This document shows, piece after piece, positions 12,446 to 64,000 of a stretch of 64,000 bases of DNA. Source of the stretch: a virus; IMG/VR virus record IMGVR_UViG_3300007517_000007, positions 7,285-71,284 of that record. One strand, given 5' to 3'. How positions within the stretch are numbered: position 1 is the first letter of the stretch; each line of letters opens with the position of its first letter. The notes below the pieces were generated by a model. The model worked only from the letters and a program-made list of their open reading frames with translations. It was not told the origin of the DNA and ran no database searches. The translations under genes were made by a program, and so were the position numbers.

Positions 12446-13987
12446 ATGGCAACACAGCACGATCTCGCTCAGCGGGCCTGGAAGGCCATGCCGCACACGA
12501 TGGGCCGACGCCTGTCGGAACGGACGTACAAGGCACCACAGCACGTCCAGTTCATCTCCTGGCTGCTGTACCTGTCCGCCACGTTGAAGAACCGGCGGCC
12601 GATCGTCCCACGGTTGGGGATCAGCTTGCCGCCTGGTTCGGGCAAGTCGGAGATCGTCGACTTCTACAACCCGATCTGGCTGCTGGAGCACGACGCGCGT
12701 CGCCGGATCATTCTGGCGTCCTACGCCGGGACGCTCGCTGAGGAGCAAGGCAAACGGGTCCGCAACCAGATCGAGATGGCACAGGACGTCCTGACGTGCC
12801 GGATCATGCAGGACTCGCGTGCCGCCGACCGGTGGCGGACGAGCAAGAACGGTGGCATGTGGACCGTCGGTGTCGGCGGTTCGATCACCGGTCGTCGCGC
12901 GTCGAACTTCCTCATAGACGACCCCCATAAGAACTTCGCTGAGGCCACGTCGGAGAAAAACCAGTTGGACGTGTGGAACTGGTACACGTCGACGGCGCGC
13001 ACCCGTCTGCTTCCCGGGTCGGCGTTGATGGTGATCCAGACCCGGTGGGCGGAGATGGATCTGATCGGCCGGTTGCGGGCCCAGGACGAAGCGAAGAACC
13101 AGTGGTTGTTCGTGAAGCTGCCTGCGATCGCTGAGGAGAACGAGTCGACAAGGTCGGTGCTCGGCGATTTCTGGTGCGACCGGTTGGAGTCGATGGGTGT
13201 GCCGTTGTTCGAGTGGCGGCGCGGGGAAGGCGAGGCGCTCTGGCCGGAGTTGGAGCCGGGTGTTCCCTGGTTCGACGTCGAGGAGTACGAACAGATCCGC
13301 CATGAGGTCGGCGAGATGGTGTGGGCTGGGCTGTACCAGCAACGCCCGGCACCGCTCGAAGGCGAGATGTTCAAGCGGTCCGATTGGGTTCGGGTGGACG
13401 CGATGCCCGCCGGGCCGCACACGATGGTGCGGCGATGGGACTTGGCGGCGTCGGTCAAGGGTGACTGGACCGCGACCTGCCTCATGGCGTACCACCACGC
13501 CACCCGCATGCCGTACATCCTGGAGATGAACCGGGACCGGCTGACTGCGCCGGAAGTGAAGGCCTTTGTTCGCGACACCGCCGAGTACGACCGGGAACGG
13601 TTCGGGGATGTCGTGCACATCCGGATCGAACGTGAACCGGGCTCGTCCGGCAAGAACGTCGAGTCGGACTACCTGCTCGAAGTGCTGCCCGATTTCAACT
13701 CGGTGAAGTTCCTGTCGTCGTCGGGTGACAAGACGGTCCGGGCGTACCCGTTGTCGTCGCAGCAAGGCTCCATGCACGTCCACATCTGCCGTCGCGACGT
13801 CGGCGGGACGTTCGAGACACCGAACTGGTGGCAATGGCTGATCGAGGAAGCAGCAGCGTTCCCGAACGCGAAGCATGACGACCTCGTCGACGTCGCCTCG
13901 TTGGCATGGGTGGACCTCGTCGAGCTGGTACCGCGGTCAGGACGCGCCCGGGCGAAGACGACCGCTCGACGCCAGCTCGGGTTCTAG
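12446..13987 (+). CDS. terL: Terminase large subunit
   Basis: PPGSGKS, LIDDPHK, TRWAEMDL, LYQQRP, WDLA, FPNAKHDDLVD. Confidence 0.95.
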   Translation: MATQHDLAQRAWKAMPHTMGRRLSERTYKAPQHVQFISWLLYLSATLKNRRPIVPRLGISLPPGSGKSEIVDFYNPIWLLEHDARRRIILASYAGTLAEEQGKRVRNQIEMAQDVLTCRIMQDSRAADRWRTSKNGGMWTVGVGGSITGRRASNFLIDDPHKNFAEATSEKNQLDVWNWYTSTARTRLLPGSALMVIQTRWAEMDLIGRLRAQDEAKNQWLFVKLPAIAEENESTRSVLGDFWCDRLESMGVPLFEWRRGEGEALWPELEPGVPWFDVEEYEQIRHEVGEMVWAGLYQQRPAPLEGEMFKRSDWVRVDAMPAGPHTMVRRWDLAASVKGDWTATCLMAYHHATRMPYILEMNRDRLTAPEVKAFVRDTAEYDRERFGDVVHIRIEREPGSSGKNVESDYLLEVLPDFNSVKFLSSSGDKTVRAYPLSSQQGSMHVHICRRDVGGTFETPNWWQWLIEEAAAFPNAKHDDLVDVASLAWVDLVELVPRSGRARAKTTARRQLGF

Positions 13988-14220
13988 TCGACGGACTTGA
14001 AAGCGCGTGGCGTGGTCACTGCGACGATGCCGGTGTCGGCGAACACGTCGTTGATGTCGTACTCCGGTGAGATGCCGTTCGCTTTCATCTCGGCGATCTC
14101 CACGACCAGCTTGTCGAACGTGGCCGTCTCGTGGGCGGTCATCCTGCCCGGCGGGCGTTTCCCAGCGATGGCTGCCCCGTAGAGCACCTTCATTCGATTG
14201 TCTCCGATTGGTTTCCTCAT
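13984..14220 (-). CDS. Nested in-frame leaderless 78-aa peptide (candidate antitoxin)
   Basis: Promoter TGTCGC-N9-TACAAT at 14228-14248; ATG exactly 7 nt downstream and in frame with the kinase. Confidence 0.6.
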   Translation of the reverse strand: MRKPIGDNRMKVLYGAAIAGKRPPGRMTAHETATFDKLVVEIAEMKANGISPEYDINDVFADTGIVAVTTPRAFKSVD

Positions 14221-15309
14221 ACTTGACATTGTACCACCTTGTGCGACACCTGCGGCGGCTGCGAGGGCTTCATCTTGCAGGAACGACAGCGTCAACGTGG
14301 TCGGGATCGAAGGGACGCGCCCGAGGTACTTTTCCCAGGCAGCCCGGTCGTGCACGACGAGGTTGCCTTGACCGTCAGCGACCGCCGTCAGTACGGGAGC
14401 CTGTTTCACCCCGTTCAACTTCGGGAGGGTGGTGACCAACTGTGACCGGGCGGTTGTCTGTGAGGCGACGTCGAGGAACGCAGCATTCGCGCCGACGTGC
14501 CCGTCGCGCAGCACGGATTCCGGGACGCCGCGACCCGTCGTTTTCTGGCGCTCCAGAGCGCCTGCGACGGCCTGATCTATCTCGGTGGTGACGTACGCAA
14601 CCTCGACTTCGTATCCTTCGCGTTGCAGGCGTTGGATCTCTTTGACGGCTTTCGGCCCGTCCTTGGACGTCTTGTCCATCAGGATGTTGGTCCCTCGTTC
14701 CAAGGCACCGGTGGTCAGCCGTTTCGCGAGGAACGAGGACTCCTCGTGAGCGATCGACGCCCACGCACCCGGATGGTCGTTGGCGAGCCCGTTGCCTTGT
14801 TTGCCTTCGTTTGACGGACCGGTGGTTTCCGGCAGGACCACCTTGAACTCGTCCGGGTTGATCGTCAGGGCACCTTCGGGTACGTCGATGAAACCCGCCT
14901 CGATTGCCGACGACTTGCCCGACGCTGCGCCGCCACCCATGACCACAGCTTTCTTGTTCGTCGACCGTGGGAACGGCTTGCCAGTTTTCTTGTCGGTCAT
15001 GGCCGTGGCGATGATGTCGTCATGGACTGCTTGACGGGCCGGGGTCAGCTTGCCGTCACTGCCGATGTGAGGCAGCAGCGTCGACTCGATCTCGTCGGTT
15101 TCTGGCACCGGGTCGAAACCGGCTTGGAGTTCCGCTCTCGACGGCAACCGTTCGTTGGCCCCCAGCGATCGAAGCGCCCCGAGGACCGAACCGGAGTCGC
15201 CGACGATCTCACCGCCGGACGAACCGCCGCCACCCCAGCGGCCGCCACCGGCCGCACCAGCAGGCACACGAGGCTGATTCGGGTCGTAACGGAACTGGCG
15301 GACACTCAT
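13984..15309 (-). CDS. Tagged zeta-toxin-family P-loop kinase with C-terminal extension
   Basis: N-terminal FRYDPNQPRVPAG..GGRW tag; MGGGAASGKSS, INPDEFK, HEESS, ILMDKT, TGRGVP. Confidence 0.85.
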   Translation of the reverse strand: MSVRQFRYDPNQPRVPAGAAGGGRWGGGGSSGGEIVGDSGSVLGALRSLGANERLPSRAELQAGFDPVPETDEIESTLLPHIGSDGKLTPARQAVHDDIIATAMTDKKTGKPFPRSTNKKAVVMGGGAASGKSSAIEAGFIDVPEGALTINPDEFKVVLPETTGPSNEGKQGNGLANDHPGAWASIAHEESSFLAKRLTTGALERGTNILMDKTSKDGPKAVKEIQRLQREGYEVEVAYVTTEIDQAVAGALERQKTTGRGVPESVLRDGHVGANAAFLDVASQTTARSQLVTTLPKLNGVKQAPVLTAVADGQGNLVVHDRAAWEKYLGRVPSIPTTLTLSFLQDEALAAAAGVAQGGTMSSMRKPIGDNRMKVLYGAAIAGKRPPGRMTAHETATFDKLVVEIAEMKANGISPEYDINDVFADTGIVAVTTPRAFKSVD

Positions 15310-42150: not shown

Positions 42151-42174
42151 GTCGCAGATCATGCCACAGACGGG

Positions 42175-45225: not shown

Positions 45226-47067
45226 TCAGGAACCGCTGGATACGCACGTACGCAGCGTGGCTGCGTAACCCGGGCGGGCACCCGACGGCACGACGGTCGA
45301 GTCGATGCGGATCGACTCACAGCCGAGCTGTGCGATACCGATCCACTCCTCCATGAACATCGCGAAGTCGTTGGTCTTGTTCAGGGCATGGTCCCGAACC
45401 AGGCCGACGTCGAGCGACCCGCCGTCCAACTTGACGAATGTGCCCGGCGCGAACATGTACGACGTCGCCCGGCAGGGGTAGTCGTTCAGTGCCGCACCGG
45501 CACCGGGCTGCGGTCGCGTCAACGGGTTCAGCCCAGCGACGGAGGTCGGGTCGTCGTAGTAGAACGTCACGTCGAGGTTTCGCGACGCAAACGCTGCGAC
45601 CACGAAGCTGTCCGGGACGTTCATGAACTCCAGGCCGGAGTCGCCGTCGTTGAGCAGGTCCGCCTTGACCACATCGACTGACCAGTCCGGCATCATCACC
45701 TGGAGGCGTGCACCGCGAGGCATGTGATGACGCTTGCGGTAGCCGTTCGCTGCGACCGTCAGGTCGTACATGAGCGAACGGGCCGCGCCGTACGAACCGA
45801 TGCCGACCGTGGCCGTGGAAGCGGCGTTGATCGCGTTGAGGTAGTAGCGCTGCTTGCGGAGCGTGAACTGCACGGCGACGTCTTCGAGGAAGTTCTCGAT
45901 CAGCTCCGGGAACGTCCGGTACTGGAGGTTGTCGAAGATCGTGCACTGCGTGACGGCTTCGACGAGCACCTCTGCGATGTCCGGGCACGTCACCCGCAGA
46001 CACGGCTTCTCAGCGCCCGGAGCGGTCGGGCTGATACCCGACGGTCCCCAGATGCCGACAGCACCCGCACCCTGAATCGTGCAGTTCGCCCGGATGAACC
46101 GGATGCCGCCACGCGGGGCCTGCACCGTCGGGATGGCGTTCTCGACGTCCTGGATCGGCTCGGCGAGCCGGAAGAAGTCGTACAACTGCGTCTGCGGGGT
46201 GCACTGTGCGCCGGATGCGACGAGACCGCCACGCTCGGTGAGCTGGTTGAACGACTTGAGGTTCTCGATCGGGTCGAGGCCCAGCGAGGGGAGTTCCTCG
46301 TTCCAGACCTTCGTGCCCGTCGCGATGGACATCTCGTCGCGGCTGCCCTGCGGGATGTTGCCGAAGCTCATCCGCTTCTTCCACATGGCCTGCGCGACCT
46401 CAGCCGGGCTGGAGAACTGCTGACCCGCACCGTCGGATGCTTGACGGGTCGACTCCATCGAGAACTGGTACTGGGCGGTGTCGATGTCGACCGGGATGTT
46501 CTTCGGCTTCGACGCAGGCGAGTTCGCAGCCAGTTCGGCCATGTTCGCGCCCCGGAAGCTGCGGCGAGGGCTGGTCGCCATCTCCTCCTCCTCATCGTCG
46601 TCCTTGGCGAACGGCTTTGGCTTCGGATCCTTCTTCTTGCCGTGGCCCTTCTTGAACAGGGCCAACTCGTCGGCGGATGCGTCGGCGTCCGGTGCGGTGT
46701 CGGTGTCGGTGTCGGCGTCGTCGCCGTCTTCGTCGGTGTCCTCATCGGCGTCTTCGTCGGTGTCGGTGTCGGCTTCGGCGACAGCGAAACGCGCCAGGCT
46801 GGAGGCCAGCTCCGCCTTGGAGTCGTTGCGGGCCGACATCTCGGCGACTACTTCGTCGTCGAGTTCGCTGAGCAGGTTCGCCTCAGCGACTTCCTCGGTC
46901 GACAGTTCGACGCCGTTGCTGATGCGAGCGGCGAGCTGACGGCCACGGGCGGTCAGCTTGTTCTGGATGGTCGACAGTTCGACGGCTGACAGGGTCGAGA
47001 GATCCTGTGGGACTTCCACGGTCTCGGTCTCGACGGTGTCGTCGGCGTTGTCTTCGGGCTTGGCCAC
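45226..47067 (-). CDS. Major capsid (hexamer) protein with N-terminal scaffold domain
   Basis: LVASGAQCTP..LYD...RGGIRF...KPC..V.CP...FPEL...LDVGLVRD; AAGGAG RBS before GTG 47067. Confidence 0.9.
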   Translation of the reverse strand: MAKPEDNADDTVETETVEVPQDLSTLSAVELSTIQNKLTARGRQLAARISNGVELSTEEVAEANLLSELDDEVVAEMSARNDSKAELASSLARFAVAEADTDTDEDADEDTDEDGDDADTDTDTAPDADASADELALFKKGHGKKKDPKPKPFAKDDDEEEEMATSPRRSFRGANMAELAANSPASKPKNIPVDIDTAQYQFSMESTRQASDGAGQQFSSPAEVAQAMWKKRMSFGNIPQGSRDEMSIATGTKVWNEELPSLGLDPIENLKSFNQLTERGGLVASGAQCTPQTQLYDFFRLAEPIQDVENAIPTVQAPRGGIRFIRANCTIQGAGAVGIWGPSGISPTAPGAEKPCLRVTCPDIAEVLVEAVTQCTIFDNLQYRTFPELIENFLEDVAVQFTLRKQRYYLNAINAASTATVGIGSYGAARSLMYDLTVAANGYRKRHHMPRGARLQVMMPDWSVDVVKADLLNDGDSGLEFMNVPDSFVVAAFASRNLDVTFYYDDPTSVAGLNPLTRPQPGAGAALNDYPCRATSYMFAPGTFVKLDGGSLDVGLVRDHALNKTNDFAMFMEEWIGIAQLGCESIRIDSTVVPSGARPGYAATLRTCVSSGS

Positions 47068-47304
47068 GGTGTAGCTCCTTGAGTGCAGGGTGTTCACGAA
47101 AAACCAGGGACGCGCCGGTGATCGGCACAGAATCATCGAGCGCCCTACGGGCGTGGATCGACGGCTTGCGGTTTGGCGCATCACCCCTGCGGAGCGAGCT
47201 ACGACGGGTCGGTCCTACGGGCCGGTGGTCCATCTGTTCGACATCATAGGCACCAGTCGACGGGCGGGTGTGGCATTTCCTGCGACAACGGGCCGGGAAC
47301 GCGA

Positions 47305-53941: not shown

Positions 53942-54232
53942 TCAGTCCGGGTGGTGGTGCACGAAGTCACGGTCGACGTGGCGGGTCCAGCCCGACAACA
54001 CACGCGGGTACGTGCACCACGCCAACACGGCCTCCGGGATCGACCCGTAACACCAGTGCTCCACGTTCGCGCTCTCCGACGTCATCACCGCCAACCGCAC
54101 CGTCGTCAACTGCGGGCGCAGCACCAGCCACTCCGGGCCGACAAGATGACGGGCAGCGAGGTCATGGTACGGGTCGTCGAAATCGACGTTCATCCACGCC
54201 TGCATCCCGTGCGGGAACATCTCGTTGATCAC
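53942..54232 (-). CDS. Hypothetical protein
   Basis: HWCY...A...W...GWTRH. Confidence 0.5.
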   Translation of the reverse strand: MINEMFPHGMQAWMNVDFDDPYHDLAARHLVGPEWLVLRPQLTTVRLAVMTSESANVEHWCYGSIPEAVLAWCTYPRVLSGWTRHVDRDFVHHHPD

Positions 54233-55246: not shown

Positions 55247-55555
55247 ATGTGGCAGGCTTGCGAGGTGGGCATCCCGTTGGACATCGAAGGCATCGCCCAA
55301 TGGAAGACCGCGTCGCTGCGGGTTGCTGACCAGTTCCTCGTCGGCGGGGAGGTCCACCCGTTCACGACGTTCCAACTCGATCAGATCCTCGCCGCAGCAC
55401 GCGACGCCGGACTATCCGAGCGCGAGCAAGGGGCGTTCCTGGTGTCCGTCATCGCGTCGGACATGGAGAACCGTGGATGGGCGGGCGTGCCGCGATCGAA
55501 GCAGTTGACGCTCGCGACAGCGTTCGCGATGCGGATGATCCACCCCGACGGTTAG
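55247..55555 (+). CDS. Hypothetical protein (start uncertain)
   Basis: Lone plus-strand ORF downstream of a quasi-palindromic promoter. Confidence 0.5.
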   Translation: MWQACEVGIPLDIEGIAQWKTASLRVADQFLVGGEVHPFTTFQLDQILAAARDAGLSEREQGAFLVSVIASDMENRGWAGVPRSKQLTLATAFAMRMIHPDG

Positions 55556-55689
55556 ACGGTGGGGTCGACGAACCGGCGGGGCTTGGCGGCGGGCTTCGCC
55601 TTGGCCACGGGTGCAGCGTCGGGCGCGCCTTCGAGTTGCTTCGCCTGCCGCTTCCATTCGCCCGGCCCCTTGAACTTGGTCACGATCAC
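55552..55689 (-). CDS. Nested in-frame leaderless 45-aa peptide
   Basis: TGTCGG-N9-TTCAAT at 55697-55717; GTG exactly 7 nt downstream and in frame. Confidence 0.5.
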   Translation of the reverse strand: MIVTKFKGPGEWKRQAKQLEGAPDAAPVAKAKPAAKPRRFVDPTV

Positions 55690-56415
55690 AGAGCCCATTG
55701 AACCATACGGTCCGACAGAAAGTTCTTCCCGGTCGGCGACGTGCGGCGGCCAGTAGCCGTTGCCGTCAGCGAAGTGGTAGGCCCCACCGATCGCGCGTGT
55801 GGCTGCGCCGATCGTGTGGACGTCGGCGAGGTTGTCGACGACAGTGACGGGGTCGAAGTCGATCCGGTCGAGGTCGTCGTCGTGGAACACACCGAGGTAG
55901 TGGTTCTGGCGTTCGAGGACCGTCCGGAACTTCGCCTTGGCCTGGTCCATCGCTGCGTCGAACTGCTCGCGGGAGGCGTCCTCCGGGACGCTCACCGTGT
56001 CGACGCCGTTGTCCTTCACCGTGAGCGCGTACTTGTCTGCGCCGTCGGGAAGGAACTCGCCGGTGCGGGCGTCGATCGTGGCCCCACCCCACGATTTCTG
56101 TGCTTCGACGAAAGCGCGTTGTCGGATCTCGTCCCAGTTCTCGTCGAGTCCGATCGGCTGCGAGTTGGCGGCGAACTCGTCGAGCTGAGCCCGGCCGATA
56201 CGGGCGAGTCGTTGGAACTCGTCTGCTGACACCGGTCGGCTGTCCCCGCGCGCTTCGCTCGCGTTGATCGGCTCGAACTGTGCGCCTCCCCCACGCCGAC
56301 CGTGCGACTGCTGATCGTGCTGGCCCTCAAGATGGAACGTGGCTGTGGTGTCGTCAAGCGGGCCCCTGCGGACCAGCACCCAGCCAAGGTCGGCACTGAT
56401 TCTGGGCACGGTCAC
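55552..56415 (-). CDS. Tagged cargo protein with an unknown domain
   Basis: FHLEGQHDQQSHG tag; WGGATID...YLGVFHD...IDFDP domain. Confidence 0.75.
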   Translation of the reverse strand: MTVPRISADLGWVLVRRGPLDDTTATFHLEGQHDQQSHGRRGGGAQFEPINASEARGDSRPVSADEFQRLARIGRAQLDEFAANSQPIGLDENWDEIRQRAFVEAQKSWGGATIDARTGEFLPDGADKYALTVKDNGVDTVSVPEDASREQFDAAMDQAKAKFRTVLERQNHYLGVFHDDDLDRIDFDPVTVVDNLADVHTIGAATRAIGGAYHFADGNGYWPPHVADREELSVGPYGSMGSVIVTKFKGPGEWKRQAKQLEGAPDAAPVAKAKPAAKPRRFVDPTV

Positions 56416-58307
56416 TGGATCACCTCGGTCTCGATAGCTCTGACCGTCACCCCACCGGCGACATAGTCAGTGACGTTCACGACTCGGTAACGCGTTTCGG
56501 GTGGCATCACCCATTCTCTTTCGTCGATGCCGTCGTCGACCATCGAACCCTGAGCCATGATCGGAAGGGCTTTCGCTCCGTTCGTTTTCACCGACATGAC
56601 CACTCGACGCGTGTCGGGATCCCCGACGATCGGGTTGCGTGCGAAGTCTTGAACGATTCGTTTCTCTTGCGTCGTGGACATAAACCCGGGGCTCTCGAAC
56701 TCGTCACCGACACGCATCTGGAACTCCGGCCATCCAGAGGCTGACGCCGCCTGACCGCGATACACGTACTCGGGGGCCGTCTGACCGTACTTGTCGATTC
56801 CTTCGGTCAGTGCCTGCACCCTCCCCGGCAAACTGTCGGCAGCTCTCGCCTGACGTTCGGCCTCGATCCGCTGATTGAACGGGCCCGCTTCCTCCGGTGT
56901 CAGTGCCCGGTGGACCACGTCCTTCCGACGAAAATCGACCGGGATGAGCGTCCCGTCAGCTTCGACCATCACCCACGTCGCCGGGCCGTGAGCGGCAGAG
57001 AGCGGTTGAAGCGGCGGGATCTCCCCGGTCCGCAGATAGGTGTTCATCTGGTGCGAGATGCCGCCCCGGTACGCGTGGTGGGCGTCAGTGAACTCGGGAT
57101 CCTCGGATGACGCTGCGTACAGCTTAGACGTGGCGGTCTCATGCCGTCCAGGCCAAGCGCCGGACGGGAGGCTCTGGGAAGCAGCAAAGACAAGCTCGCC
57201 GTCGTCGATGTCACCCAAGTCGACAATGGTGGCGCTACCAGACCCGGCCCCTCCACGCCGACCGTGCGACTGCTGATCGTGTTGGCCCTGGAGATGGAAC
57301 ACCTCGACCGACGCCGCCATCTCGTCGCCGTCTTCCTCCCAGTCGACCGGGCCGTCACGCCGACCGGCGGACTTCCTTCGCCAATACTCCTCAGCGGCCT
57401 CCGGCGACAACCACTTCGGGTCGATGCCACCTCGACTGTCGATCTCGTTGATCGTCTCCCACCGACCGACGGAGTTGCGAGGCTGATTCGGATCGAACCG
57501 GAACACGGCGATTCCCAGCTCGTCGCGAAGGCTCGGGTAACGCCGGTACAGCTCCTCCGCACCGGCACCGAACCCGTCGCTGTCCTGCCCCCACACCGAC
57601 TCCCAATGGCCCCCAACTTTGACCTGGACGTCGATGATGTCGACGGGGGTGCGGCCGTCGACACAGACCTCCATTTCGCCTCCGACCATGCTTCCCTGAC
57701 GGTTCCGGTCGACCGAGTTGCCGTCAGCGTCGACGAACGCTGTGCGGCCGTCGGGGGTGTCGACCTCTTGGACGAGGATGTCGGACTGACGGGCCCTGGC
57801 CGTGACCTTCACGACCAGATTCATGCCCCTCCCGGCGTTCACCGACTCGGCGACGCCTTCGCGTGTGGTCCATGACTGGCCGAGCCCGCTCAGCGACTCG
57901 ATGCGCTGATGGCCCTCGAAGCCGAGTAGCTGGTCGGCGATGATCGGCCCGAGCTGGAGGTGCTGGTTGAACTCGTCGGGCTCCGCCCCCGAGTACATCT
58001 GAGTGTCGATGCGCCGTTTCAGGTCGTCAGACACGTTGATCGCAAGGCCGCGGTGCATGACCGGACCATCGAACTTCGACTGGTTGACACCCCGCCGGGC
58101 GGCCTTCGCTACGCGTTCGGTCTCCGCTGCCGCTGCACCCTTGTACTGGCCTCCACCGGATCCGCCGCCCCAGCGGCCACCGTCCGACGAACCAGCGGGA
58201 ACACGAGGCTGATTCTCGTCGAACGCCAGCTCCGCCGTGGCGGTCAGGGTGTCGCGCATCCAGTCGGGGCCGCCCACCATCGGGTCGTCGATGTTGATGA
58301 TCATCAC
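56412..58307 (-). CDS. Tagged polyvalent protein with two ADP-ribosyltransferase domains
   Basis: HRGL/QSWTT/EMEV and MNTYLR/VYRG/FMSTT/EREW (VIP2-like); three tags. Confidence 0.8.
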   Translation of the reverse strand: MMIINIDDPMVGGPDWMRDTLTATAELAFDENQPRVPAGSSDGGRWGGGSGGGQYKGAAAAETERVAKAARRGVNQSKFDGPVMHRGLAINVSDDLKRRIDTQMYSGAEPDEFNQHLQLGPIIADQLLGFEGHQRIESLSGLGQSWTTREGVAESVNAGRGMNLVVKVTARARQSDILVQEVDTPDGRTAFVDADGNSVDRNRQGSMVGGEMEVCVDGRTPVDIIDVQVKVGGHWESVWGQDSDGFGAGAEELYRRYPSLRDELGIAVFRFDPNQPRNSVGRWETINEIDSRGGIDPKWLSPEAAEEYWRRKSAGRRDGPVDWEEDGDEMAASVEVFHLQGQHDQQSHGRRGGAGSGSATIVDLGDIDDGELVFAASQSLPSGAWPGRHETATSKLYAASSEDPEFTDAHHAYRGGISHQMNTYLRTGEIPPLQPLSAAHGPATWVMVEADGTLIPVDFRRKDVVHRALTPEEAGPFNQRIEAERQARAADSLPGRVQALTEGIDKYGQTAPEYVYRGQAASASGWPEFQMRVGDEFESPGFMSTTQEKRIVQDFARNPIVGDPDTRRVVMSVKTNGAKALPIMAQGSMVDDGIDEREWVMPPETRYRVVNVTDYVAGGVTVRAIETEVIQ

Positions 58308-58308
58308 G

Positions 58309-60363
58309 TCATGCCTCCCTGTTGACCGGGGTGAGTTCCTCGATGTCGATCGGGTTGCCGAGCAGGATGACCTCGCGCTCGCGCAGCGAACCCCACCCGG
58401 TGGTCGATGCCATCCCGACGATCTGGTTGATCGGGACTTCGGCGCGCATCATCCACCCACCGCCCGACGAGTGCTCCCCGCCGAACTGGCGTGCGATGCC
58501 GATGTCAGTCGTCCATGACGACAACGGGTTGCCCTGCGTCACGGTCGCGCCGGTCATGTTGGTCGCTGAGTGACCGGAGTCCTTCACACCTCGGTACACG
58601 GTGATCGTCGACCGGTTGTCGCGTCGCACACCGTTCAGGATCGTGTCCTCGATCGCGAACTGGTCAGCCTCGATGATGTGGTTGATCGTGGTCGGCATCA
58701 GGTTCCGGATGCCTTTGGCCTTGTCCATCGCCCCGCCCGGGTAGTACCCGTTCAGTGCCGCCGTTGCTGCGGACAGGTTTTTCTGTTCAGCGATCGCGAG
58801 ATGGAACGCCACCATGCCAGGGGTGACTGCCGACTGCTGCCATTGCGAGTTACGCCAATCGACTGCGCCGTGCGCGACCGTGACCCCGGTCGCCTCCTCG
58901 ACGATCGCCGACATGGCTGCCGGGTCGCCGCCTGCCGTGAACGCTTCGACCGCTACCTGGACGCGTTCGGTCACCTCCGACTTCGGGTAGTCGACTCGCC
59001 AGGCTTTAGCCGCCGTCGAAAGTTGCATCGCGACACCGAGCGGGAGCCGCCCCACCACTTCGCCACGCAGACCGAAGTCGGCGATGTCGTTCTCGATGTC
59101 CTGCGCGATCATGATCCGCTGCAACGAGTCCATCTCGGCCAGGGTCTGTGCGTTGAGTTCGTCGGCGATCTCCTGCCGGGTTTCCTCACCCATGTACAGC
59201 ACGACCGTCGCTGCGCCGTCCTGCTTGAACTTCCCGGCGTTCGATTCGTTCCCGGCGTACTGGTCACTCAACGACTCGACGTCGTCGTACGGGAACGGGG
59301 TGCCGTCCTCGCGTGTTGCCGGGTTCTGCTCGAACCCGCCCGGGCCGCCACCACCACCCCAGCGGCCGCCGTCCGACGAACCAGCAGGGACACGAGGCTG
59401 ATCCGGGTTGTAACGCAGCGCCTGCGTGATAGGGGACCGAGATCCGGGATCGTCGCGAAGAATCGAGAGAGATGCGGAGCGGGTCGGGTCGAGGAACTTG
59501 ACGCCGTCCCACGACGACGAGCTGAGAAACACCTGCTTGAACCGTGGAGAGATCGCGAGGAGATCAGCGCCGTACACCGGTTCGATCTCGTTGCGGTTGT
59601 CGTCCCATTGGGCCATGACCGCCTCGAACTCACGGTACTTGGCGTTGTCGGAGCCGAGCACCCCGTTGCGGACCTCGAACCGGGCGTACGCCTGCCATTC
59701 CTCGATCGTCGAGTCGGTGTAAGTCCCATACCCCGCCGCCGCCCACGAGTACCGGCCAACATCGACGGCGTTCAGCTCGAACGTGAACACACCGAGTTCG
59801 TCGGCGAGCCCCTGCTCTGTGCGCTCGGCGAACTCGGTGCCGATCCCCTGGTTCTGAAACTCCGGTTCGATAGTCAGGTACTCGTTCTTCACGATGCCGT
59901 TCGAGTACATCGTGCGTTGGAAGTCCCCTACGGGATCTCCGTTCGGGGCGTCGATTGTGCCAGCAATGGAAATGTCGGTCGTGCCTGGATTCGTCAACGA
60001 AGCGAACTCCTCGATCTCCGCCCGCACCGTGTACTTCTCGCCGTTGGCGGTGATCTGGAAGTCGTAGATGTCCGACAACGCCGACAGCCGATCCTCAGCA
60101 GAGATTTCGGCGACGAACGGGCGTCGAGCAGCGCCCCCACCGGCGTGCGTCTGCTGATCGTGCTGGCCTCGGAGGTGGAACACGGTGAGCCCGTCGACGG
60201 TGAACACCTCCTCGTCGTCGTCGTCCTCGTCGTTTTCGGGGTCACCGGCTGCTTCGGCGTCGGACTGCTCCGACATGAACACCGGGGCCAGCTTCACGAG
60301 ACGGCCGAGCGTGTCGATCATGGCTTGCTCGTCTTCGCGAGTCGTCGTGGCGTTGACGGTCAC
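58309..60363 (-). CDS. Tagged polyvalent protein: GNAT-like plus ADP-ribosyltransferase
   Basis: FQNQGIGT; VYRGV/LSSWTT/EREV; two tags. Confidence 0.8.
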   Translation of the reverse strand: MTVNATTTREDEQAMIDTLGRLVKLAPVFMSEQSDAEAAGDPENDEDDDDEEVFTVDGLTVFHLRGQHDQQTHAGGGAARRPFVAEISAEDRLSALSDIYDFQITANGEKYTVRAEIEEFASLTNPGTTDISIAGTIDAPNGDPVGDFQRTMYSNGIVKNEYLTIEPEFQNQGIGTEFAERTEQGLADELGVFTFELNAVDVGRYSWAAAGYGTYTDSTIEEWQAYARFEVRNGVLGSDNAKYREFEAVMAQWDDNRNEIEPVYGADLLAISPRFKQVFLSSSSWDGVKFLDPTRSASLSILRDDPGSRSPITQALRYNPDQPRVPAGSSDGGRWGGGGGPGGFEQNPATREDGTPFPYDDVESLSDQYAGNESNAGKFKQDGAATVVLYMGEETRQEIADELNAQTLAEMDSLQRIMIAQDIENDIADFGLRGEVVGRLPLGVAMQLSTAAKAWRVDYPKSEVTERVQVAVEAFTAGGDPAAMSAIVEEATGVTVAHGAVDWRNSQWQQSAVTPGMVAFHLAIAEQKNLSAATAALNGYYPGGAMDKAKGIRNLMPTTINHIIEADQFAIEDTILNGVRRDNRSTITVYRGVKDSGHSATNMTGATVTQGNPLSSWTTDIGIARQFGGEHSSGGGWMMRAEVPINQIVGMASTTGWGSLREREVILLGNPIDIEELTPVNREA

Positions 60364-63300
60364 GCCTCGACCTCCCAGTCGTTGAACACCGCCGGGTTGA
60401 TGTACGACTTCAACGACGTCGACGGTGTGTTGCCGAGAATATCCGACACGGCGACACCGACCGTCTTGCGTGCCCGTTCCAGCGCCGCCTGCGACGGGTA
60501 CCGCTTCGGGAGCGCCGCCACCCTCGACATCGCGATCGTGTTGGCCTTGTACGTGCGGATGTCATGGTTCTTGAAGTCGGAACCGGTGACCCGGTCGATG
60601 TAGTCGTCGGTGCTCGCAGCGTTCGTGTCGAACAAGCGGTCGCTGCCGGATTTGCCCGACTTCCAGGCGTTCATCGTCGACGCGAGCGCCGGGTCGTTCA
60701 CAGTGATGTCGACGGGCTTCGATCCTTTGCCCTCGAACCGGATCCGGACTTCGTCGCCGGACACAGTGACGTGTCGGGCTTCGAGCGACGACGCGCCGTA
60801 GGTGGCCTTGCCTGATCGGGTACCTCGCGCTGCGGTGCCGCCACCGGAGTCGATGCGGATCCCGGTGGCGCGCATCACTTGAACTGCTGCGGCGTCCGGG
60901 TTCGTCGTAGCGTCTTCGGCGATCGCCTTGTCGAGCTTCGGCATCGCCCGATGCAGATCGGCTTGGCGTTCGTACTTGGCTTCGGCCTGCCGTTTCGAGT
61001 GGGCCTCCGAGTAAGTCGACTGGACCTGACCGTTCGGGGCGACACCGCGAGCGACGAGCCCGTTTCTGTTGCCGTCGGCCGAGTTGGCGACCATCACGTA
61101 CCGCATGCCGGGTGCGACACCGAGCGCTTTGCGTTCCTCTGCGGTCGCCTCGTGCAGCCCCGAGTTGTCGGACCCGCCGTGCACGGCGCGCATCATCGCT
61201 TCCTCATGGGTCTCACCGCGTCGCGTCGTGTACCGGGAGCGTTGCGCCTTCGAGAGAGTGTCGACTTCGGCTTGGATCGTCGCCGGATCCTTGTTCGACC
61301 CGCCGGTCCCGAACGGTGGCGGAGAGCAAGACGAGTCGTCGCAGCCCACGCTGAGCTGGTGCATCTCCGACGACAGGTGCGACATCGAAGCGTTCGAGAA
61401 CGACACCCGGCGGTCGCCGATCGTGCGGGCGGCGACACCGTTGGCGGCGTTGTAGGTGCGGGCCTGGTCGAGTAGCTCGTCGATCGGTAGGTCGATACGG
61501 ACTACGTCGACCGGTGACGCTGCCGGGTCGCCGTCGAGTTCCATGATCGCAGCGGCCGCCCACCGGTGATGCCCGTCCAGGATGCGGCCGTCCGACGACA
61601 CCATGATGCGATGCGCCGACCCGAACGAACCGTCCTGGATCCGTTCGATCATGCGGGCCACTGCGACCCCGTCGAGTTCGTTCTGTGTGGCCGACAGCGT
61701 CGACGCGTTCACGGTGTCATCGACGAACCCGACGCCCTGCTCGGCGAGTTGGTCACGGAACCCGTCGATGTGCACCCTCGGGATCTGCGGCATGTCCGCC
61801 CGGCCAATCGTGTTGCCACGCACCTCGGAGAACAGGTTGGGATACCCGTCGACGTCGACCGCGGTCAGGTCAACGGTGCCTTCGGTGATGTCAGCGAACG
61901 TCGCGACGATCCCAGCGACCTCCGACGGTGATGTCCGGATCGTTTCACCGGTCGCGATGCGGTCGGCGACACCCGACCCGATCGAGCCTCCACCGATCGA
62001 CGTCCACCGGCCGTCGTCGTCGCGAGCCTGCCCCGGGTCGAACCGGAACACGGTGATCCCGGCGGCGAGTTCGACGTCCTTCACGCCTTGGCGTTCGGTG
62101 AGTTCGTCGACGACGGTCTGGAACGCGTCTTTCTTCACGTACGCGCCCTCACGCCGGTAGTTGGCGTCGTCGACCTGCACGAACCGGTCGAGCTTCAAGT
62201 ACGACTCGCGACCGTTCTTGTCCCAGTCCCCGGACCCGACCGGCAGCCGATCGTCCGACGACCGACCAGGCTTCGAGGTGAGCTGCACACCGACCAGGTT
62301 CTTGCCGTCGGCGGTGCGTCCGATGATGAGCACCGGGCGGTCCTTCGACTGCGACGCGTCTTCCTCGAACGGGATCTTCGCCCACACGATCTCACCCGGG
62401 TCGGCCTTGCCGTCAGGGTGTCGCGGCCGGTACGCGATCCGCACATCGGAGAACGGCACGTCAGGGAGCACACCCGCAGGACGCCCACGACGGGCTGGAC
62501 GGGCTTTGCCGGGTGGTGGAGGGATCGGACGACCATCACGGCCGCCGCCACCCCAGCGGCCGCCTCCGGACGAACCAGCGGGCACACGAGGCTGATTCTC
62601 GTCGAACCTGAACACGGTGACGCCCTCCACGGCGAGGCCTTGCCGTTCGAGTGAGTCGATCCATGCTTTGCCGTCGTCGGTGCGAGCAATGGAGTGGGCG
62701 ATGTTCGGGATCTGGTCCTTGCCGAACTTCCACATCTCGGTGGCGATGTCCTTGCCCCGCCATTTCGGTTCGACGATGATGGACTGGACCTCGCGCACCT
62801 CGACGCCGTCCCTGGTCACCTTCGTCGTGCGGATCGCCGCAAGAGGTCGCGACCTGTTCGCTTCCGCTGTGGCACGCCAGAACTCCGGGGAGTGCACCTC
62901 GACAGCCTCGATGCTGCCGTACCCGACGAAGTCGAGCCGGACGGACTTGTCGCCGACAGCGATGATCTTCGACGTGGCGGGCACCGGCATGGAGTCGACC
63001 CCGGCATCCCAGTCGGCCCGGTCGATGCTTCCCCAATTCTTGTGCTGGATCGTGTTGAACCCGCCCTCGGACCAACCTGATTCGAGCGGGCGGGCCGTGC
63101 CTCCACCGGCGTGCGTCTGCTGGTCGTGCTGGCCTTGGAGGTGGAACGTCTCGACGGCCAGGTTCGCTGTTCGGGGGTCGCCGACGCGACGCACACCGTC
63201 CCACGACGGGCCATTGAGGAACACCGTCTTGAATCGGGGATCCACGGCAAGCAGGTCGGCCGGGTAGACCGAGCCGATGTCGTCAGACCACGAACGGAAC

Positions 63301-64000
63301 ACCGCCTCAGCGGCCGACGTGATCTCCGGGGTGAACGGTGTGGCCTGGCTCTGAGGGTTGCCAATGAGAGCCCGGGCCTCGTTGACCCACCGGTCACGGG
63401 TGAACGACGCTAGAGACGAGCCCGAGCCAGCGTCGAGCTGATACCCGCGTGCCGCCCACGCGTACTTGCCGACAGAAACTGCGCCCACCCGGTACTCGGT
63501 CGCGCCGAGCCCGGCCTCGGTCTGATCCAGGAACGCCGTCCCGATGCCTTTGCCCTGCTCGCCGACCGAGATGTTCAACGCATGGTTGAACACCGTGCCG
63601 TCTTCGTACACCGACCTACTGAACGTCCCCATTTCGACGCCGTCCGTGTCGTAGATCGACCCGGACACATCCGTCTTGATCGGCAACACCCCTTGCGGTG
63701 AGGTGGTGTTCACGTCACCGATCGTGTACGACCGCCCACCGACATCGAACTCGCCGGAGTACACGTCCTGCACCTTGGCGGCGAGCCGCTCCCGGGCGTC
63801 GGCTTCCCCGGCTGCCATTGCGGCTTTCGGGGTGGCGTGCTTCGATGCGCGATCGCCGTCCCAGGTGACGTCGTCGATACCGGTCTCCGCCAACCACGCG
63901 ACGAGGGCCTGCTCACCCTCGACGGTGTTCTGGTCGCCGTACATGCCGTACACGTCAGCGCCGGTCACCTCGCCGTCGTCTTCGATGAACACCACCTCGA
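60360..64000 (-). CDS. Tagged polyvalent protein (probably 5'-truncated): GNAT, GNAT, PemK/MazF, ParB/Srx, topoisomerase IB
   Basis: QGKGIGT; WRGKDIAT; DPGEIVW..PFEED....KDRPV; ILDGHHRW; GIRI/FEGKG/HDIRT/LGNT/KSYI. Confidence 0.85.
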   Translation of the reverse strand, partial: EVVFIEDDGEVTGADVYGMYGDQNTVEGEQALVAWLAETGIDDVTWDGDRASKHATPKAAMAAGEADARERLAAKVQDVYSGEFDVGGRSYTIGDVNTTSPQGVLPIKTDVSGSIYDTDGVEMGTFSRSVYEDGTVFNHALNISVGEQGKGIGTAFLDQTEAGLGATEYRVGAVSVGKYAWAARGYQLDAGSGSSLASFTRDRWVNEARALIGNPQSQATPFTPEITSAAEAVFRSWSDDIGSVYPADLLAVDPRFKTVFLNGPSWDGVRRVGDPRTANLAVETFHLQGQHDQQTHAGGGTARPLESGWSEGGFNTIQHKNWGSIDRADWDAGVDSMPVPATSKIIAVGDKSVRLDFVGYGSIEAVEVHSPEFWRATAEANRSRPLAAIRTTKVTRDGVEVREVQSIIVEPKWRGKDIATEMWKFGKDQIPNIAHSIARTDDGKAWIDSLERQGLAVEGVTVFRFDENQPRVPAGSSGGGRWGGGGRDGRPIPPPPGKARPARRGRPAGVLPDVPFSDVRIAYRPRHPDGKADPGEIVWAKIPFEEDASQSKDRPVLIIGRTADGKNLVGVQLTSKPGRSSDDRLPVGSGDWDKNGRESYLKLDRFVQVDDANYRREGAYVKKDAFQTVVDELTERQGVKDVELAAGITVFRFDPGQARDDDGRWTSIGGGSIGSGVADRIATGETIRTSPSEVAGIVATFADITEGTVDLTAVDVDGYPNLFSEVRGNTIGRADMPQIPRVHIDGFRDQLAEQGVGFVDDTVNASTLSATQNELDGVAVARMIERIQDGSFGSAHRIMVSSDGRILDGHHRWAAAAIMELDGDPAASPVDVVRIDLPIDELLDQARTYNAANGVAARTIGDRRVSFSNASMSHLSSEMHQLSVGCDDSSCSPPPFGTGGSNKDPATIQAEVDTLSKAQRSRYTTRRGETHEEAMMRAVHGGSDNSGLHEATAEERKALGVAPGMRYVMVANSADGNRNGLVARGVAPNGQVQSTYSEAHSKRQAEAKYERQADLHRAMPKLDKAIAEDATTNPDAAAVQVMRATGIRIDSGGGTAARGTRSGKATYGASSLEARHVTVSGDEVRIRFEGKGSKPVDITVNDPALASTMNAWKSGKSGSDRLFDTNAASTDDYIDRVTGSDFKNHDIRTYKANTIAMSRVAALPKRYPSQAALERARKTVGVAVSDILGNTPSTSLKSYINPAVFNDWEVEA

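Follow-up and report, generated by a model that had tools for sequence, protein, structure and literature searches.

Three short conserved peptide tags precede enzyme modules in giant actinobacteriophage proteins, probably as marks for cutting apart or loading the injected effectors

Why should a phage place the same few short peptides again and again in front of unrelated enzymes? The question arises in a window of 64,000 nucleotides (positions 7,285 to 71,284 of IMG/VR virus record IMGVR_UViG_3300007517_000007), where three short conserved peptide tags (A, B and C) precede enzyme modules in giant actinobacteriophage multi-enzyme proteins. Regular expressions applied to the translated genes found 11 tag copies in the 71-kb record, confined to five genes (genes A to D and gene Z; Table 1). 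A six-frame HMM scan of the whole 71,284-bp record for tags A and B gave matches in those five genes only (six for tag A and four for tag B, plus a weak tag B match, iE 0.31), and the recurrence of the tags is not due to chance. The unit of tag followed by domain, which the sequence-only reading had described in four adjacent genes and at 13984-15309, is real, all 11 copies having been found by regular expression or HMM. Its coordinates needed small corrections: one of the six tag A ranges runs 58170-58229 rather than 58170-58223, and the four tag B ranges had been given one codon too long. Tag C is a member of a recurrent class, C..C(A/S)PPP.G.GGS. No Pfam model, LPD families included, matched at or across any tag, and the exact DNA pattern for FHLxGQHDQQ had no match in IMG/VR beyond this record. 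Genes A to D are translationally coupled, gene B overlapping gene A by GTGA with GGAGG upstream, and the tblastn matches of the major head protein encoded downstream are actinobacteriophage capsid genes.

Table 1. Tagged genes, tags, modules and the head gene, in window coordinates.
Feature	Position	Strand	Basis
Gene A, C-terminal 1212 aa of polyvalent protein, cut at contig end	60360..63998	-	ORF open 5'
Module A1, GNAT-like with N-terminal subdomain	63159..63998	-	50% identity to P0002 residues 1438-1715
Tag B FHLQGQHDQQTH, then GGG, gene A	63111..63146	-	regex + HMM
Module A2, GNAT	62619..63086	-	Acetyltransf_7 E 0.0026, below cut-off
Tag A long form FRFDENQPRVPAGSSGGGRW, then GGGG, gene A	62553..62612	-	regex + HMM
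Module A3, PemK/MazF-like	62100..62399	-	PF02452 E 1.7e-7
Tag A short form FRFDPGQARDDDGRW, gene A	62004..62048	-	regex + HMM
Module A4, ParB-like (DGHHRW)	61359..61985	-	phrog_2859 E 5e-26
Tag C GCDDSSCSPPPFGTGGS, single copy here, gene A	61296..61346	-	regex
Module A5, topoisomerase IB catalytic core	60417..60992	-	PF01028 E 2.3e-11
Gene B, 684 aa: leader, tag B, GNAT-like module, tag A, ART	58309..60363	-	ORF, Pfam, regex
Tag B, gene B residues 62-73	60145..60180	-	regex
Tag A long form, gene B residues 316-335	59359..59418	-	regex
Module B2, ADP-ribosyltransferase-like	58312..59331	-	DRAT E 0.0035, below cut-off
Gene C, 631 aa: leader, tag A, ART-like, short tag A, 50-aa peptide, tag B, ART	56412..58307	-	ORF, regex
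Tag A long form, gene C residues 27-46	58170..58229	-	regex
Module C1, ART-like	57513..58145	-	motif reading only: HRG...QSWTT...EMEV (R-S-E)
Tag A short form, gene C residues 269-283	57459..57503	-	regex
Short 50-aa segment, tag A to tag B, gene C	57309..57458	-	ORF, regex
Tag B, gene C residues 337-348	57264..57299	-	regex
Module C3, ADP-ribosyltransferase	56415..57224	-	ESM Atlas features 0.96, ADPrib_exo_Tox/ART clusters
Gene D, 287 aa: leader, tag B, domain of unknown fold	55552..56415	-	ORF, regex; AF2 mean pLDDT 84
Tag B, gene D residues 27-38	56302..56337	-	regex
D-domain, widespread	55555..56283	-	155 homologues at E<=1e-5
Major head protein, downstream of genes A-D, same strand	45226..47184	-	phrog_777 E 1.5e-76
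Gene Z, 441 aa: tag A, Gly run, zeta-toxin kinase domain	13984..15309	-	PF06414 E 4e-25
Tag A long form, gene Z residues 6-25, natural N-terminus	15235..15294	-	regex

The window ends where the contig ends, and gene A as seen there is incomplete. Its full form, P0010 (1846 aa), shows 100% identity across all five modules and adds three, among them the zincin peptidase module with which it starts (HEYGH at residue 200) and whose model matched zincins only, weakly (best E 8.5e-3). The earlier names PemK and topoisomerase IB, and the zeta kinase behind tag A, were borne out by Pfam. Module A4 is ParB-like by its phrog match, ParB/Srx being a putative name given to a motif. Two GNATs had been counted where the window holds three GNAT-like modules; these fall below Pfam cut-offs and are supported weakly or indirectly, through relatives, as for A1, whose own Pfam match is not significant and whose relative in P0002 (residues 1438-1715) matches Acetyltransf_7 at E 4e-18. 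Of the three ARTs claimed, C3 was confirmed (structural TM 0.57-0.62), whereas B2 is weakly suggested via relatives and C1 by motif reading only. Gene C is identical to P0017. As a separate observation, DRAT matches P0002 (E 3.8e-7) within a stretch judged by eye to be the same module type as B2; BLASTP gave no match between B2 and P0002.

Judged by profile searches, the tags are found in hundreds of proteins from uncultured phages. The tag B profile found 230 proteins at E<=1e-3 among 1.84e9 (1.84 billion) representatives, with up to 10 stretches in one protein at domain-sized spacing. Within the best 150 proteins, a strict regular expression counted 393 copies in 142 and two or more copies in 121 (median spacing 247 aa). 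Across 457 copies of tag B, its H, L, G, H, D, Q, H and G show 85-100% conservation, in a profile that itself favours these residues. The expectation that most tags lead into a Gly linker did not carry over to relatives, in which only 197 of 400 tag B copies had a run of at least three Gly within the 8 residues past the tag. In tag A, residues that the search pattern left free were conserved in 34 of 45 unique NQPRVPAG contexts on other viral contigs, and the codons of NQPRVPAG differed between contigs of 44-71% GC. This conservation as peptides across very different phages argues for selection at the peptide level. The proteins themselves are the known 'polyvalent proteins', and we found no description of junction tags in the published literature. 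Among cultured phages none with a tag turned up; E3 gp205, Rizal gp101 and gp102, and Tierra gp9 have modules in common with the tagged proteins and lack the tag.

Each tag belongs to the module downstream of it, since no tag lies near a C-terminus and the first one often lies near the N-terminus. In 39% of 142 proteins no more than 40 aa separated the first tag from the N-terminus, and the residues after the last tag numbered at least 63 (median 244), none of the 142 having fewer than 40. Six genome windows with called genes contain 23 tagged ORFs, each with 121 aa or more past the last tag, tag A is followed by at least 60 aa in 30 of 34 contexts, and the four complete tagged genes of the window all begin 5-61 aa ahead of a tag. 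The tags are also portable, with A, B or C on orthologous modules in different phages. The PemK, ParB, C1 and zeta modules carry tag A here and tag B in homologues at 43-69% identity, among them the A3 ortholog in P0001 (69%), the C1 homologue in P0005 (62%) and the gene Z homologue P0022 (43%). Tag B likewise heads the B2 homologues P0068 and P0026, and the 17 homologues of A4 divide into nine with tag B, four with tag A, one at an N-terminal position and three tag-free. In the polyproteins P0001 and P0005, gene D recurs as the final module.

In relatives the tagged genes form part of the head-gene block, next to portal and MuF. The gene order in G004 and G010 is portal, MuF, tagged genes, scaffold and major head protein; G008 has a tag inside a portal-MuF fusion protein, G009 a tagged protein that contains a MuF-like domain and is encoded immediately after the portal, and G011 a run of tagged single-module genes of roughly 210-380 aa. 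On other viral contigs tag A separates toxin domains from a portal, MuF or prohead protease: it comes behind the portal in 5 of 33 ORFs and behind an S78 protease in 1 of 33, and in 8 of 33 it is followed by an RNase, REase, deaminase or zeta toxin domain, with L023 placing it between portal and zeta in a portal-zeta-MuF fusion protein.

AF2 models predict that the tags sit in disordered, Gly-rich linkers. Residues 1-5 and 13-34 of gene D have pLDDT <50, its first four 10-residue blocks averaging 39-47, and both tags flanking the P0010 peptidase are below 50 as well, neither being docked onto the peptidase. Of 152 tagged proteins, 30 contain the zincin module, which among the viral records examined is present in the loci of only 3; MuF (Pfam) is present in 13 of 20 viral records. 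Portal and capsid families differ between tag-bearing phages, no head protein family that could be a common receptor was shared by them, and no conserved receptor or protease accompanied the tags among the viral records examined.

With a probability of roughly 0.45, we favor the explanation that the tags are junction signals on capsid-delivered polyvalent effectors, serving as loading address and cut mark much as the capsid targeting sequence (CTS) of T4 does. Genes A to D and Z would encode polyvalent effectors delivered out of the capsid, and the three tags would be protein-level junction signals owned by the downstream module, acting as the N-terminal propeptides of T4 internal proteins do. 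A short tag on a flexible Gly-rich tether would let a phage head component recognise each module, and would also mark the cut site at which the polyprotein is split into separate effectors, the cutter being the zincin with which the gene A product begins, a prohead protease, or both. We infer packaging, cleavage and a tag-reading partner, the tag serving as loading address, cleavage site or both, and one virion might deliver about ten individually addressed effectors. Encapsulin cargo has a like architecture, in which a flexible Gly-rich tether joins variable cargo to a short conserved peptide and the whole is loaded into an HK97-fold shell; its loading peptides, however, are usually C-terminal and unlike the tags in sequence, and their binding to the shell is demonstrated, whereas that of the tags would be putative. 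The short cleavage motif of the phiKZ-like giant phage SPN3US presumably differs from the tags.

In the available parts of the SPN3US articles, the prohead protease cuts many head-internal proteins before ejection into the host, but these are separate proteins rather than tagged polyproteins and the protease family differs (PMC10052503, PMC7411985). The T4 CTS, as the available part of its description has it, is like the tags a short N-terminal peptide, shared by head-internal proteins that have nothing else in common; it guides their loading, is cut off by the head protease gp21 and can be transferred to foreign cargo (PMC9026906). The CTS sequences are unrelated to the tags, each protein has one CTS where up to 10 iterated tags occur per polyprotein here, T4 is a myovirus with a scaffolding core, and the CTS function is experimental whereas that of the tags is deduced (PMC9026906). 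Pre-toxin elements such as PT-VENN of CdiA (Zhang et al. 2012; PMC3482391), proposed as processing site and recombination point, also stand directly N-terminal to variable toxin domains, but only before the last module whereas tags stand before every module; Table 1 in the available part of that article has no such element for the MuF/phage-head route. In temperate phages, MuF polymorphic toxins (Jamet et al. 2017; PMC5576092) carry toxin domains on a head protein whose gene adjoins the portal, a likeness shared by tag A in the L023 fusion, whereas no MuF domain was found in this incomplete phage record; 'linker', 'conserved motif' and 'cleav' are all absent from that text. Polyvalent proteins, in the available part of their description (Iyer, Burroughs, Anand, de Souza, Aravind 2017; PMC5512222), join unrelated effector domains in one polypeptide as here, have ART, GNAT, zeta-type kinase, ParB and zincin peptidase domains in common with the present proteins, and are likewise encoded next to portal, terminase and MuF head genes. 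Their packaging and release by embedded peptidases was predicted, and that part of the text contains no junction motif and none of the words 'linker', 'interdomain' and 'spacer' (PMC5512222).

The earlier proposal of loading or ejection signals thus keeps the unit, the polarity, the portability, the head-gene block and the T4 precedent on its side, but as a pure address it is disfavored by carrier-fused and tagless cargo: some tags sit where a portal or MuF carrier adjoins its cargo, and there loading needs no address. Three chemically unlike tags in one protein are also hard to reconcile with a single binding pocket or protease specificity, and tag conservation exceeds what protease sites usually show. 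The same carrier junctions would fit a doubtful alternative, that the tags are only recognised and cut by a phage peptidase (the embedded zincin or the prohead protease) and hold no address, loading being achieved via portal and MuF carriers or as uncut polyprotein. A tag at every junction in a disordered linker, zincin as the first module of the gene A product and the embedded-peptidase release proposed in the available part of Iyer et al. (PMC5512222) agree with it, and so do DUF7178/D-domain pairs, in which a tag is present or absent, as expected if the tag decides between fused and separate products. Single-module proteins (gene Z, gene D, the G011 run), however, retain a tag 5-60 aa from the N-terminus, where a linker site would be useless unless the leader matters. 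Moreover, the peptidase is missing from most tagged proteins and loci, S78 protease is present in only 4 of 20 records, and cleavage sites do not usually have as many as eight near-invariant residues.

Unlikely, and less probable still, is a protein-level role unrelated to loading or cutting, such as binding of a metal through the His3-Asp of tag B or the Cys2 of tag C, action as a hinge or insulator for independent domain folding, a translational pause (PPP, PG), or a post-injection signal, for example a tether to incoming DNA or a host factor. The invariant His, Asp and Cys are ligand-type residues, an RGG-like stretch follows tag B, and the lack of a conserved phage-encoded partner agrees with a property intrinsic to the tag or with a host partner that is universal; but tag A, which has no ligand-type residues, still replaces tag B on the same modules, and the N-terminal polarity and strict link to head-gene clusters would be left unexplained. 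It is very improbable that the tags are only conserved DNA linkers for swapping effector cassettes by homologous recombination, with a functionless peptide: the four long tag A copies do have identical codons in 7 of 13 same-residue columns (1.14 expected, P<1e-5), rare CCT, CGT and GCT among them, and module order and tag type vary between close relatives, but across contigs wobble positions are free to vary while the peptide is fixed, flanking residues outside the search pattern are conserved, the motif is retained at 41% to 70% GC, and within-genome DNA identity is modest (68-84% over 45-78 nt). Under the favored reading of loading address and cut mark, tag copies could as a secondary effect double as recombination points that shuffle modules, because copies within one genome share DNA identity.

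The D-domain shows that a tag is not obligatory, because it also stands at the N-terminus with no tag (in 13 of 120 homologues and in 5 of 62 viral contexts) and is found directly fused to DUF7178-type or MuF modules without a tag (15 of 62 contexts), the two cases tested among these fusions being portal-MuF proteins. Of the 120 homologues, 28 had tag C ahead of the domain (counted when within 80 aa upstream), 21 had tag A there and 6 had tag B. Comparison with the PDB gave no match (Foldseek best E 0.3, VIA best Z 3.8) for this domain, which AF2 modeled with pLDDT >90 across most of residues 50-230.

Scanning the window's five tagged effector genes (genes A to D and Z), we recovered every tag copy listed by the sequence-only reading, to within one or two codons. 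Tag A is present in six copies, four in a long form ([FL][RA][FY][DN].[ND]QPRVPAG.....GRW) and two in a short form, tag B in four copies of FHL.GQHDQQ[TS]H, and tag C in one. When all six frames of the entire record were searched with tag A and tag B profiles, the matches were confined to genes A, B, C, D and Z. Behind the tags stand largely the domains that had been named from the sequence: zeta toxin, PemK and topoisomerase IB (TopoIB) were significant in Pfam, the ParB-like module is phrog_2859, and ESM Atlas features and structure identify the final module of gene C as an ADP-ribosyltransferase (ART). In the window, the ART of gene B and the GNAT-like modules, named in the same reading, fell below Pfam cut-offs, but in relatives the same modules reached E 4e-18 (GNAT) and 4e-7 (DRAT). 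The first module of gene C (C1) is putatively ART-like, judged solely from an R-S-E-type motif. Gene A carries many unrelated domains, as polyvalent proteins do (GNAT-like, GNAT, PemK, ParB-like and TopoIB modules); gene B carries GNAT-like and ART modules and gene C two ART-like modules. The full-length form of the gene A product, P0010, adds a zincin and an ART-like module, and with its N-terminus included the five genes hold about 15 modules. The tagged proteins are members of the known polyvalent proteins. The sections of Iyer et al. 2017 (PMC5512222) covered here describe two to fifteen unrelated effector or enzymatic domains per polypeptide in such proteins and propose that embedded peptidases release the domains.

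The window covers bases 7285-71284 of an IMG/VR virus record that is linear, 71,284 bp long and estimated to be 84% complete, and the window ends where the contig ends. PHROG scans revealed a long minus-strand late block, in the order abutting genes A to D, DNA methylase, DUF5131, major head protein, head-tail adaptor, major tail protein, tape measure and tail genes. Polyvalent protein genes in phages lie beside the portal and terminase genes; genes A to D lie upstream of the major head protein gene on the same strand. GTGA overlaps at A/B and C/D, the 1 nt separating B from C, and a GGAGG-like site upstream at every junction among these genes indicate that genes A to D are separate and translationally coupled. 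The tagged zeta gene is located ~40 kb away from the remaining tagged genes, and it overlaps the terminase gene by 4 nt (13984-13987) on the opposite strand. Among the ORFs of the source record scanned with PHROG and Pfam, none was a portal or MuF gene, and PF04233 (MuF) gave 0 matches in it. The missing portal gene is probably located past the contig end, the contig stopping within gene A, and a separate MuF gene may also lie beyond it, given the estimated completeness of the record.

Window positions and strands of the tagged genes, the large terminase and the major head protein
Feature	Position	Strand	Remark
Gene A	60360-63998	minus	5' end cut by contig end
Gene B	58309-60363	minus	
Gene C	56412-58307	minus	
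Gene D	55552-56415	minus	
Gene Z, zeta toxin	13984-15309	minus	
Large terminase	12446-13987	plus	converges on gene Z
Major head protein	45226-47184	minus (late block)	phrog_777

A tag B profile built from the window's four copies and searched against 1.84 billion representative proteins matched 230 proteins at E<=1e-3, 46 at E<=1e-10 and 6 at E<=1e-30, with a maximum of 10 tag stretches per protein in proteins of 2745 or 3023 aa. Among the best 150 of the 230 proteins, a strict regular expression counted 393 copies in 142 (at least two copies in 121 and at least three in 67), and a local profile search counted 457 copies over 152 proteins, in which the residues H, L, G, H, D, Q, H and G/A are each 85-100% conserved. 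The commonest form is KHLPGQHDQx(S/T)HG, the FHLQ form of the window being the actinophage flavour. Consecutive copies are separated by a median of 247 aa (quartiles 182-325), the length of one domain. All the tag B proteins that we looked up were metagenome-derived and without informative names. Tag B is rare in cellular genomes: the pattern HLxGQHDQxxH gave 91 stretches in the genomes of 185,579 cellular species, of which a simple context filter retained only 13; by eye, some 5-8 were true tags. Many of the remaining stretches are one recurring unrelated frame (RLVHLEGQHDQVEH), indicating that the DNA pattern alone is not specific. Bacterial genomes from many unrelated phyla contain this frame (..ARLVHLEGQHDQVEHxxHV.., loci L102-L192), which is distinct from the tag and probably represents a conserved gene read in an alternative frame.

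Viral relatives carry the tag among head genes. The tag B profile matched all 19 of the longer IMG/VR records taken from 27 contigs holding KHLPGQHDQ, 1 to 14 times each, and multiple copies mostly cluster within up to about 17 kb. Among complete or nearly complete genomes, two (G004 and G010) show the order portal, MuF-type head morphogenesis protein, tagged genes, scaffold and major head protein; in G009 the portal is followed by tagged genes with a MuF-like domain among them, and in G008 the tag is carried by a portal-MuF fusion. A 172-kb DTR phage (G011, locus L099) has a run of nine successive genes coding for about 210-380 aa each, and in most of them a single tag B lies 13-132 aa behind the start, a layout of 'one tag per gene' and not of polyproteins. 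BLAST-type searches of the cultured collection found no tag-bearing cultured phage, and no near-identical DNA was found in cultured phages. Bare tag peptides proved too short as tblastn queries against 50,697 phage records (no match at E<=1), and the tagged proteins of loci L094 and L095 gave single-module matches only. Cultured phages do share modules without the tags (Tierra gp9; Rhodococcus phage E3 gp204-208; Rizal gp96, gp97, gp101 and gp102), and the module phrog_3170 is also found in E3 gp205, annotated 'structural protein'. Polyvalent proteins are predicted to travel in the virion and to enter the cell along with the DNA, and for the tagged proteins this annotation is the sole, indirect hint in that direction. 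Related-locus searches were empty for gene B, and for P0001 in viral and metagenome collections; the tag A alignment matched 63 stretches, of which none passed tblastn. No NCBIfam family covers the tags.

The NQPRVPAG core of tag A was found in 47 IMG/VR stretches, giving 45 unique reading-frame contexts. Residues outside the search pattern are conserved in 34 of the 45 ([FY][DN]x ahead of the core and G.[WF] behind it), and the tag is followed by a Gly/Ser-rich stretch, Gly and Ser making up on average 0.45 of the 12 residues that come next. Given that unspecified residues are conserved and that the profiles match only the five genes of the record, we rejected chance or low-complexity matches as an explanation. 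Pfam scanning of 33 tag A ORFs gave matches in 13 and none in 20. Upstream of the tag we found portal (5), S78 prohead protease (1) and DUF1353 (1), and downstream of it RNAse_A_bac (CdiA-type RNase A; 2), barnase-type ribonuclease (2), Tox-REase-5 (1), a deaminase (1, weak) and zeta (2), with MuF behind one of the two tag A-headed zeta toxin domains. These contexts indicate that tag A, a widespread element, separates a head-internal carrier from a toxin domain. Its position N-terminal to toxin domains is like that of pre-toxin motifs, which precede variable toxin domains in polymorphic toxins with a cognate immunity gene behind them. According to Zhang et al. 2012 (PMC3482391), pre-toxin domains may be processing sites, and the parts of that paper covered here list no pre-toxin element for the MuF/phage-head route; linkers or motifs are not mentioned in Jamet et al. 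2017 (PMC5576092).

Tag C belongs to a recurrent class, (F/A)AC..(K/S).C(A/S)PPP.G.GGS, which we met upstream of homologues of the gene D domain (D-domain, window 55555-56283). In the 120 listed of its 155 homologues (E<=1e-5), the 80 aa upstream of the domain contain the tag C class in 28, a tag A-type motif in 21 (loose regular expression) and tag B in 6; the domain starts the protein in 13, and 52 have no such tag, part of them showing further variants such as FYNKNHDxxxGRF. Among 62 unique genomic contexts from 80 IMG/VR loci (L193-L272), the D-domain follows a tag A-type motif in 21, is joined directly behind a DUF7178-type module in 11 and directly behind MuF in 4 (two being portal-MuF fusions by Pfam), and stands at the protein start in 5, the other contexts being diverse (15) or cut by a contig end (6). 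One protein has the architecture portal-tag A-D-domain, and another, of 3018 aa, has a Mu-type portal at its start and four tag A-type motifs. Together, the contexts indicate that such cargoes are habitually attached to head-internal proteins, tag present or absent. The AF2 model of gene D (mean pLDDT 84, core above 90) found no PDB counterpart with Foldseek (best E 0.3) or VIA-align (best Z 3.8), and the D-domain may be a new fold of head-internal proteins. The domain is widespread, with 86 IMG/VR loci besides the 155 homologues.

The tags are polar with respect to their cargo. Of 142 proteins, 39% have their first tag B no more than 40 aa from the N-terminus and 55% no more than 70 aa, percentages that may be inflated since metagenome proteins are possibly fragments; the window's own genes are immune to this, and genes B, C, D and Z begin 61, 26, 26 and 5 residues ahead of the tag. 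In the same 142 proteins the residues after the last tag B are never fewer than 40 (minimum 63, median 244), and in 23 tagged ORFs from six 20-kb genome windows (own gene calls) at least 121 aa follow the last tag, the first tag lying within 40 aa of the start in 7. On the basis of this polarity we rejected the tags as C-terminal ends of the preceding domain. The tags also exchange in front of the same module. PemK is headed by tag A in the window and by tag B in P0001 (69% identity), C1 by tag A in the window and by tag B in P0005, and zeta by tag A in the window and by tag B in P0022, while the 17 homologues of the ParB-like module carry tag B in 9 cases and tag A in 4, one being an N-terminal module and 3 untagged. 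Tags A and B occur together in 11 of 152 proteins, and gene D is the last module in the polyproteins P0001 and P0005. Most of the gene D leader and tag and both zincin-flanking tags have pLDDT <50, which is weak evidence of disorder given the heterogeneous alignments there.

The reading that we favor, at a probability of roughly 0.45, is that the tags are a combined address and processing signal in a T4-like scheme; packaging and cleavage are both inferred. Each module would bear a short recognisable peptide on a flexible tether, and this peptide would serve the handling of the module in the phage head, be it loading, cutting or both. The closest functional precedent is the T4 capsid targeting sequence (CTS), as described in the part of PMC9026906 covered here, and the SPN3US ejection proteins are, within the portion of their literature covered, a further comparison system. 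The CTS is an N-terminal peptide that suffices for incorporation into T4 proheads and is removed by the gp21-type prohead protease at its consensus site; in genes B, C, D and Z the tags are similarly close to the start (5-61 aa). To our knowledge there is no likeness between the tags and the CTS sequence. A wider claim, which we regard as doubtful, is that the tags are a portable 'loading code' across phages, in which A, B or C on a Gly tether would direct uptake into the procapsid of HK97-type tailed phages, proteolytic release and ejection into the host; the three tag classes might then set the place or order of ejection. If this were true, one virion of this phage would deliver about 15 separately released enzymes, and phages beyond the T4 group would have in the code their general equivalent of the T4 CTS.

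That the tags are cleavage sites only seems unlikely to us. The part of gene A cut off by the contig end is supplied by P0010. This protein (1846 aa, from metagenome collections) is 100% identical to gene A across all five window modules, residue 1 of the window's gene A product being its residue 635. Unlike MuF polymorphic toxins, which have an N-terminal MuF (PF04233 or PF06152), P0010 opens with a degenerate tag B (EEFHGNHDQSDHG, residues 15-27) and a peptidase module, followed by tag B (326), an ART-like module and tag B (570). The peptidase module has HEYGH at residue 200, the embedded zincin motif (HExxH) characteristic of polyvalent proteins. AF2 modeling of residues 1-349 (9-row alignment) gave a core pLDDT of 70-90, and the top Foldseek matches were weak and almost all zincin metallopeptidases, the best being an M34 lethal-factor-type catalytic domain (E 8.5e-3, TMq 0.25); the model is consistent with the embedded 'MPTase' of polyvalent proteins. 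Pro-Pro endopeptidases, which cleave between prolines, were also among the matches (E 0.06-0.5). PPP is present in tag C and P-x-x-P or PG in tags A and B, and the fold matches set against this proline content are only suggestive. A motif (E/D)xxLAA(S/A)AG recurs after the zincin modules of P0001-P0006 and P0010 (e.g. P0010 residues 281-290), ~40 aa ahead of the next tag B, and could be the peptidase's own cleavage site. The zincin module is present in only 30 of 152 tagged proteins and, among the viral loci examined, only in those of G001, G012 and G014, with none in the 20-kb windows of G004, G008, G009, G010 and G011 (the HMM may miss other zincin clades); we therefore rejected it as obligatory tag partner.

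Pfam MuF was detected in 13 of 20 records (4 of the 7 that are near-complete), sometimes tag-flanked itself, and the S78 protease in 4 of 20 tagged records, with 0 matches in the source record (G000), so that neither is a universal partner. Portal, scaffold and capsid families differ from phage to phage among the tagged phages, and no candidate for a conserved tag reader emerged among zincin, MuF, S78 protease, portal, scaffold and capsid. Any single-partner model has its main difficulty in this lack of a conserved candidate reader, together with the three chemically unlike tags within one protein. Another role at the protein level, for example in metal binding, as a hinge, as a pause or as a signal after injection, is in our view slightly less likely than cleavage sites only.

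Contigs of 44-71% GC differ at the wobble positions of NQPRVPAG, indicating that the peptide and not the DNA is what is kept. The four long tag A copies of the genome share an identical codon in 7 of 13 same-residue columns vs 1.14 expected from codon usage (P<1e-5), including the rare CCT, CGT and GCT, indicating that these copies are of recent DNA ancestry or gene-converted and able to act as recombination points; that the tags are recombination junctions and nothing else is very improbable.

Polyvalent proteins are thought to be the main route by which counter-defence and takeover enzymes enter the cell in many phages. Near-invariant, exchangeable tags at module boundaries provide a concrete handle on the loading, cutting and release of polyvalent proteins of 2000-3000 aa, and they are defined peptides for mutation, reporter fusion and mapping by N-terminomics. 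HMMs of the tags offer a signature for finding packaged effector arrays and new effector domains, such as the D-domain, in metagenomes. If the tags suffice for loading, they would be a tool to make phages carry chosen proteins. The proteins themselves are known; as far as our searches reach, the recurrent, exchangeable, module-heading tags are undescribed: full-text searches for the tag peptide strings returned no relevant paper ('QPRVP' once, unrelated, in Epstein-Barr virus; tag B strings none), and the sections of Iyer et al. 2017 (PMC5512222) covered here, whose supplementary alignments could bear on the point, describe no junction motif.

Relatives of the capsid protein are actinobacteriophage capsids, with 767 matching records (464 Mycobacterium, 198 Gordonia and 59 Microbacterium phages). 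The major head protein has 652 aa, of which only residues 253-645 match other actinophage capsids; its N-terminal 250 aa belong to no recognisable family, gave nothing usable in the ESM Atlas, and may be a fused scaffold-like domain. The DNA methyltransferase appears to be split over two overlapping frames (54229-55022), by either a frameshift or a sequencing error: FTSPPY lies in an N-terminal piece of 66 aa (54822-55022), and the main ORF spans 54229-54885. Finally, the structural block contains four glycosyltransferase-like genes (27200-27928, 39419-40270, 40225-40905 and 41473-42162; PHROG, E 3e-15 to 4e-6), which could act in virion glycosylation.
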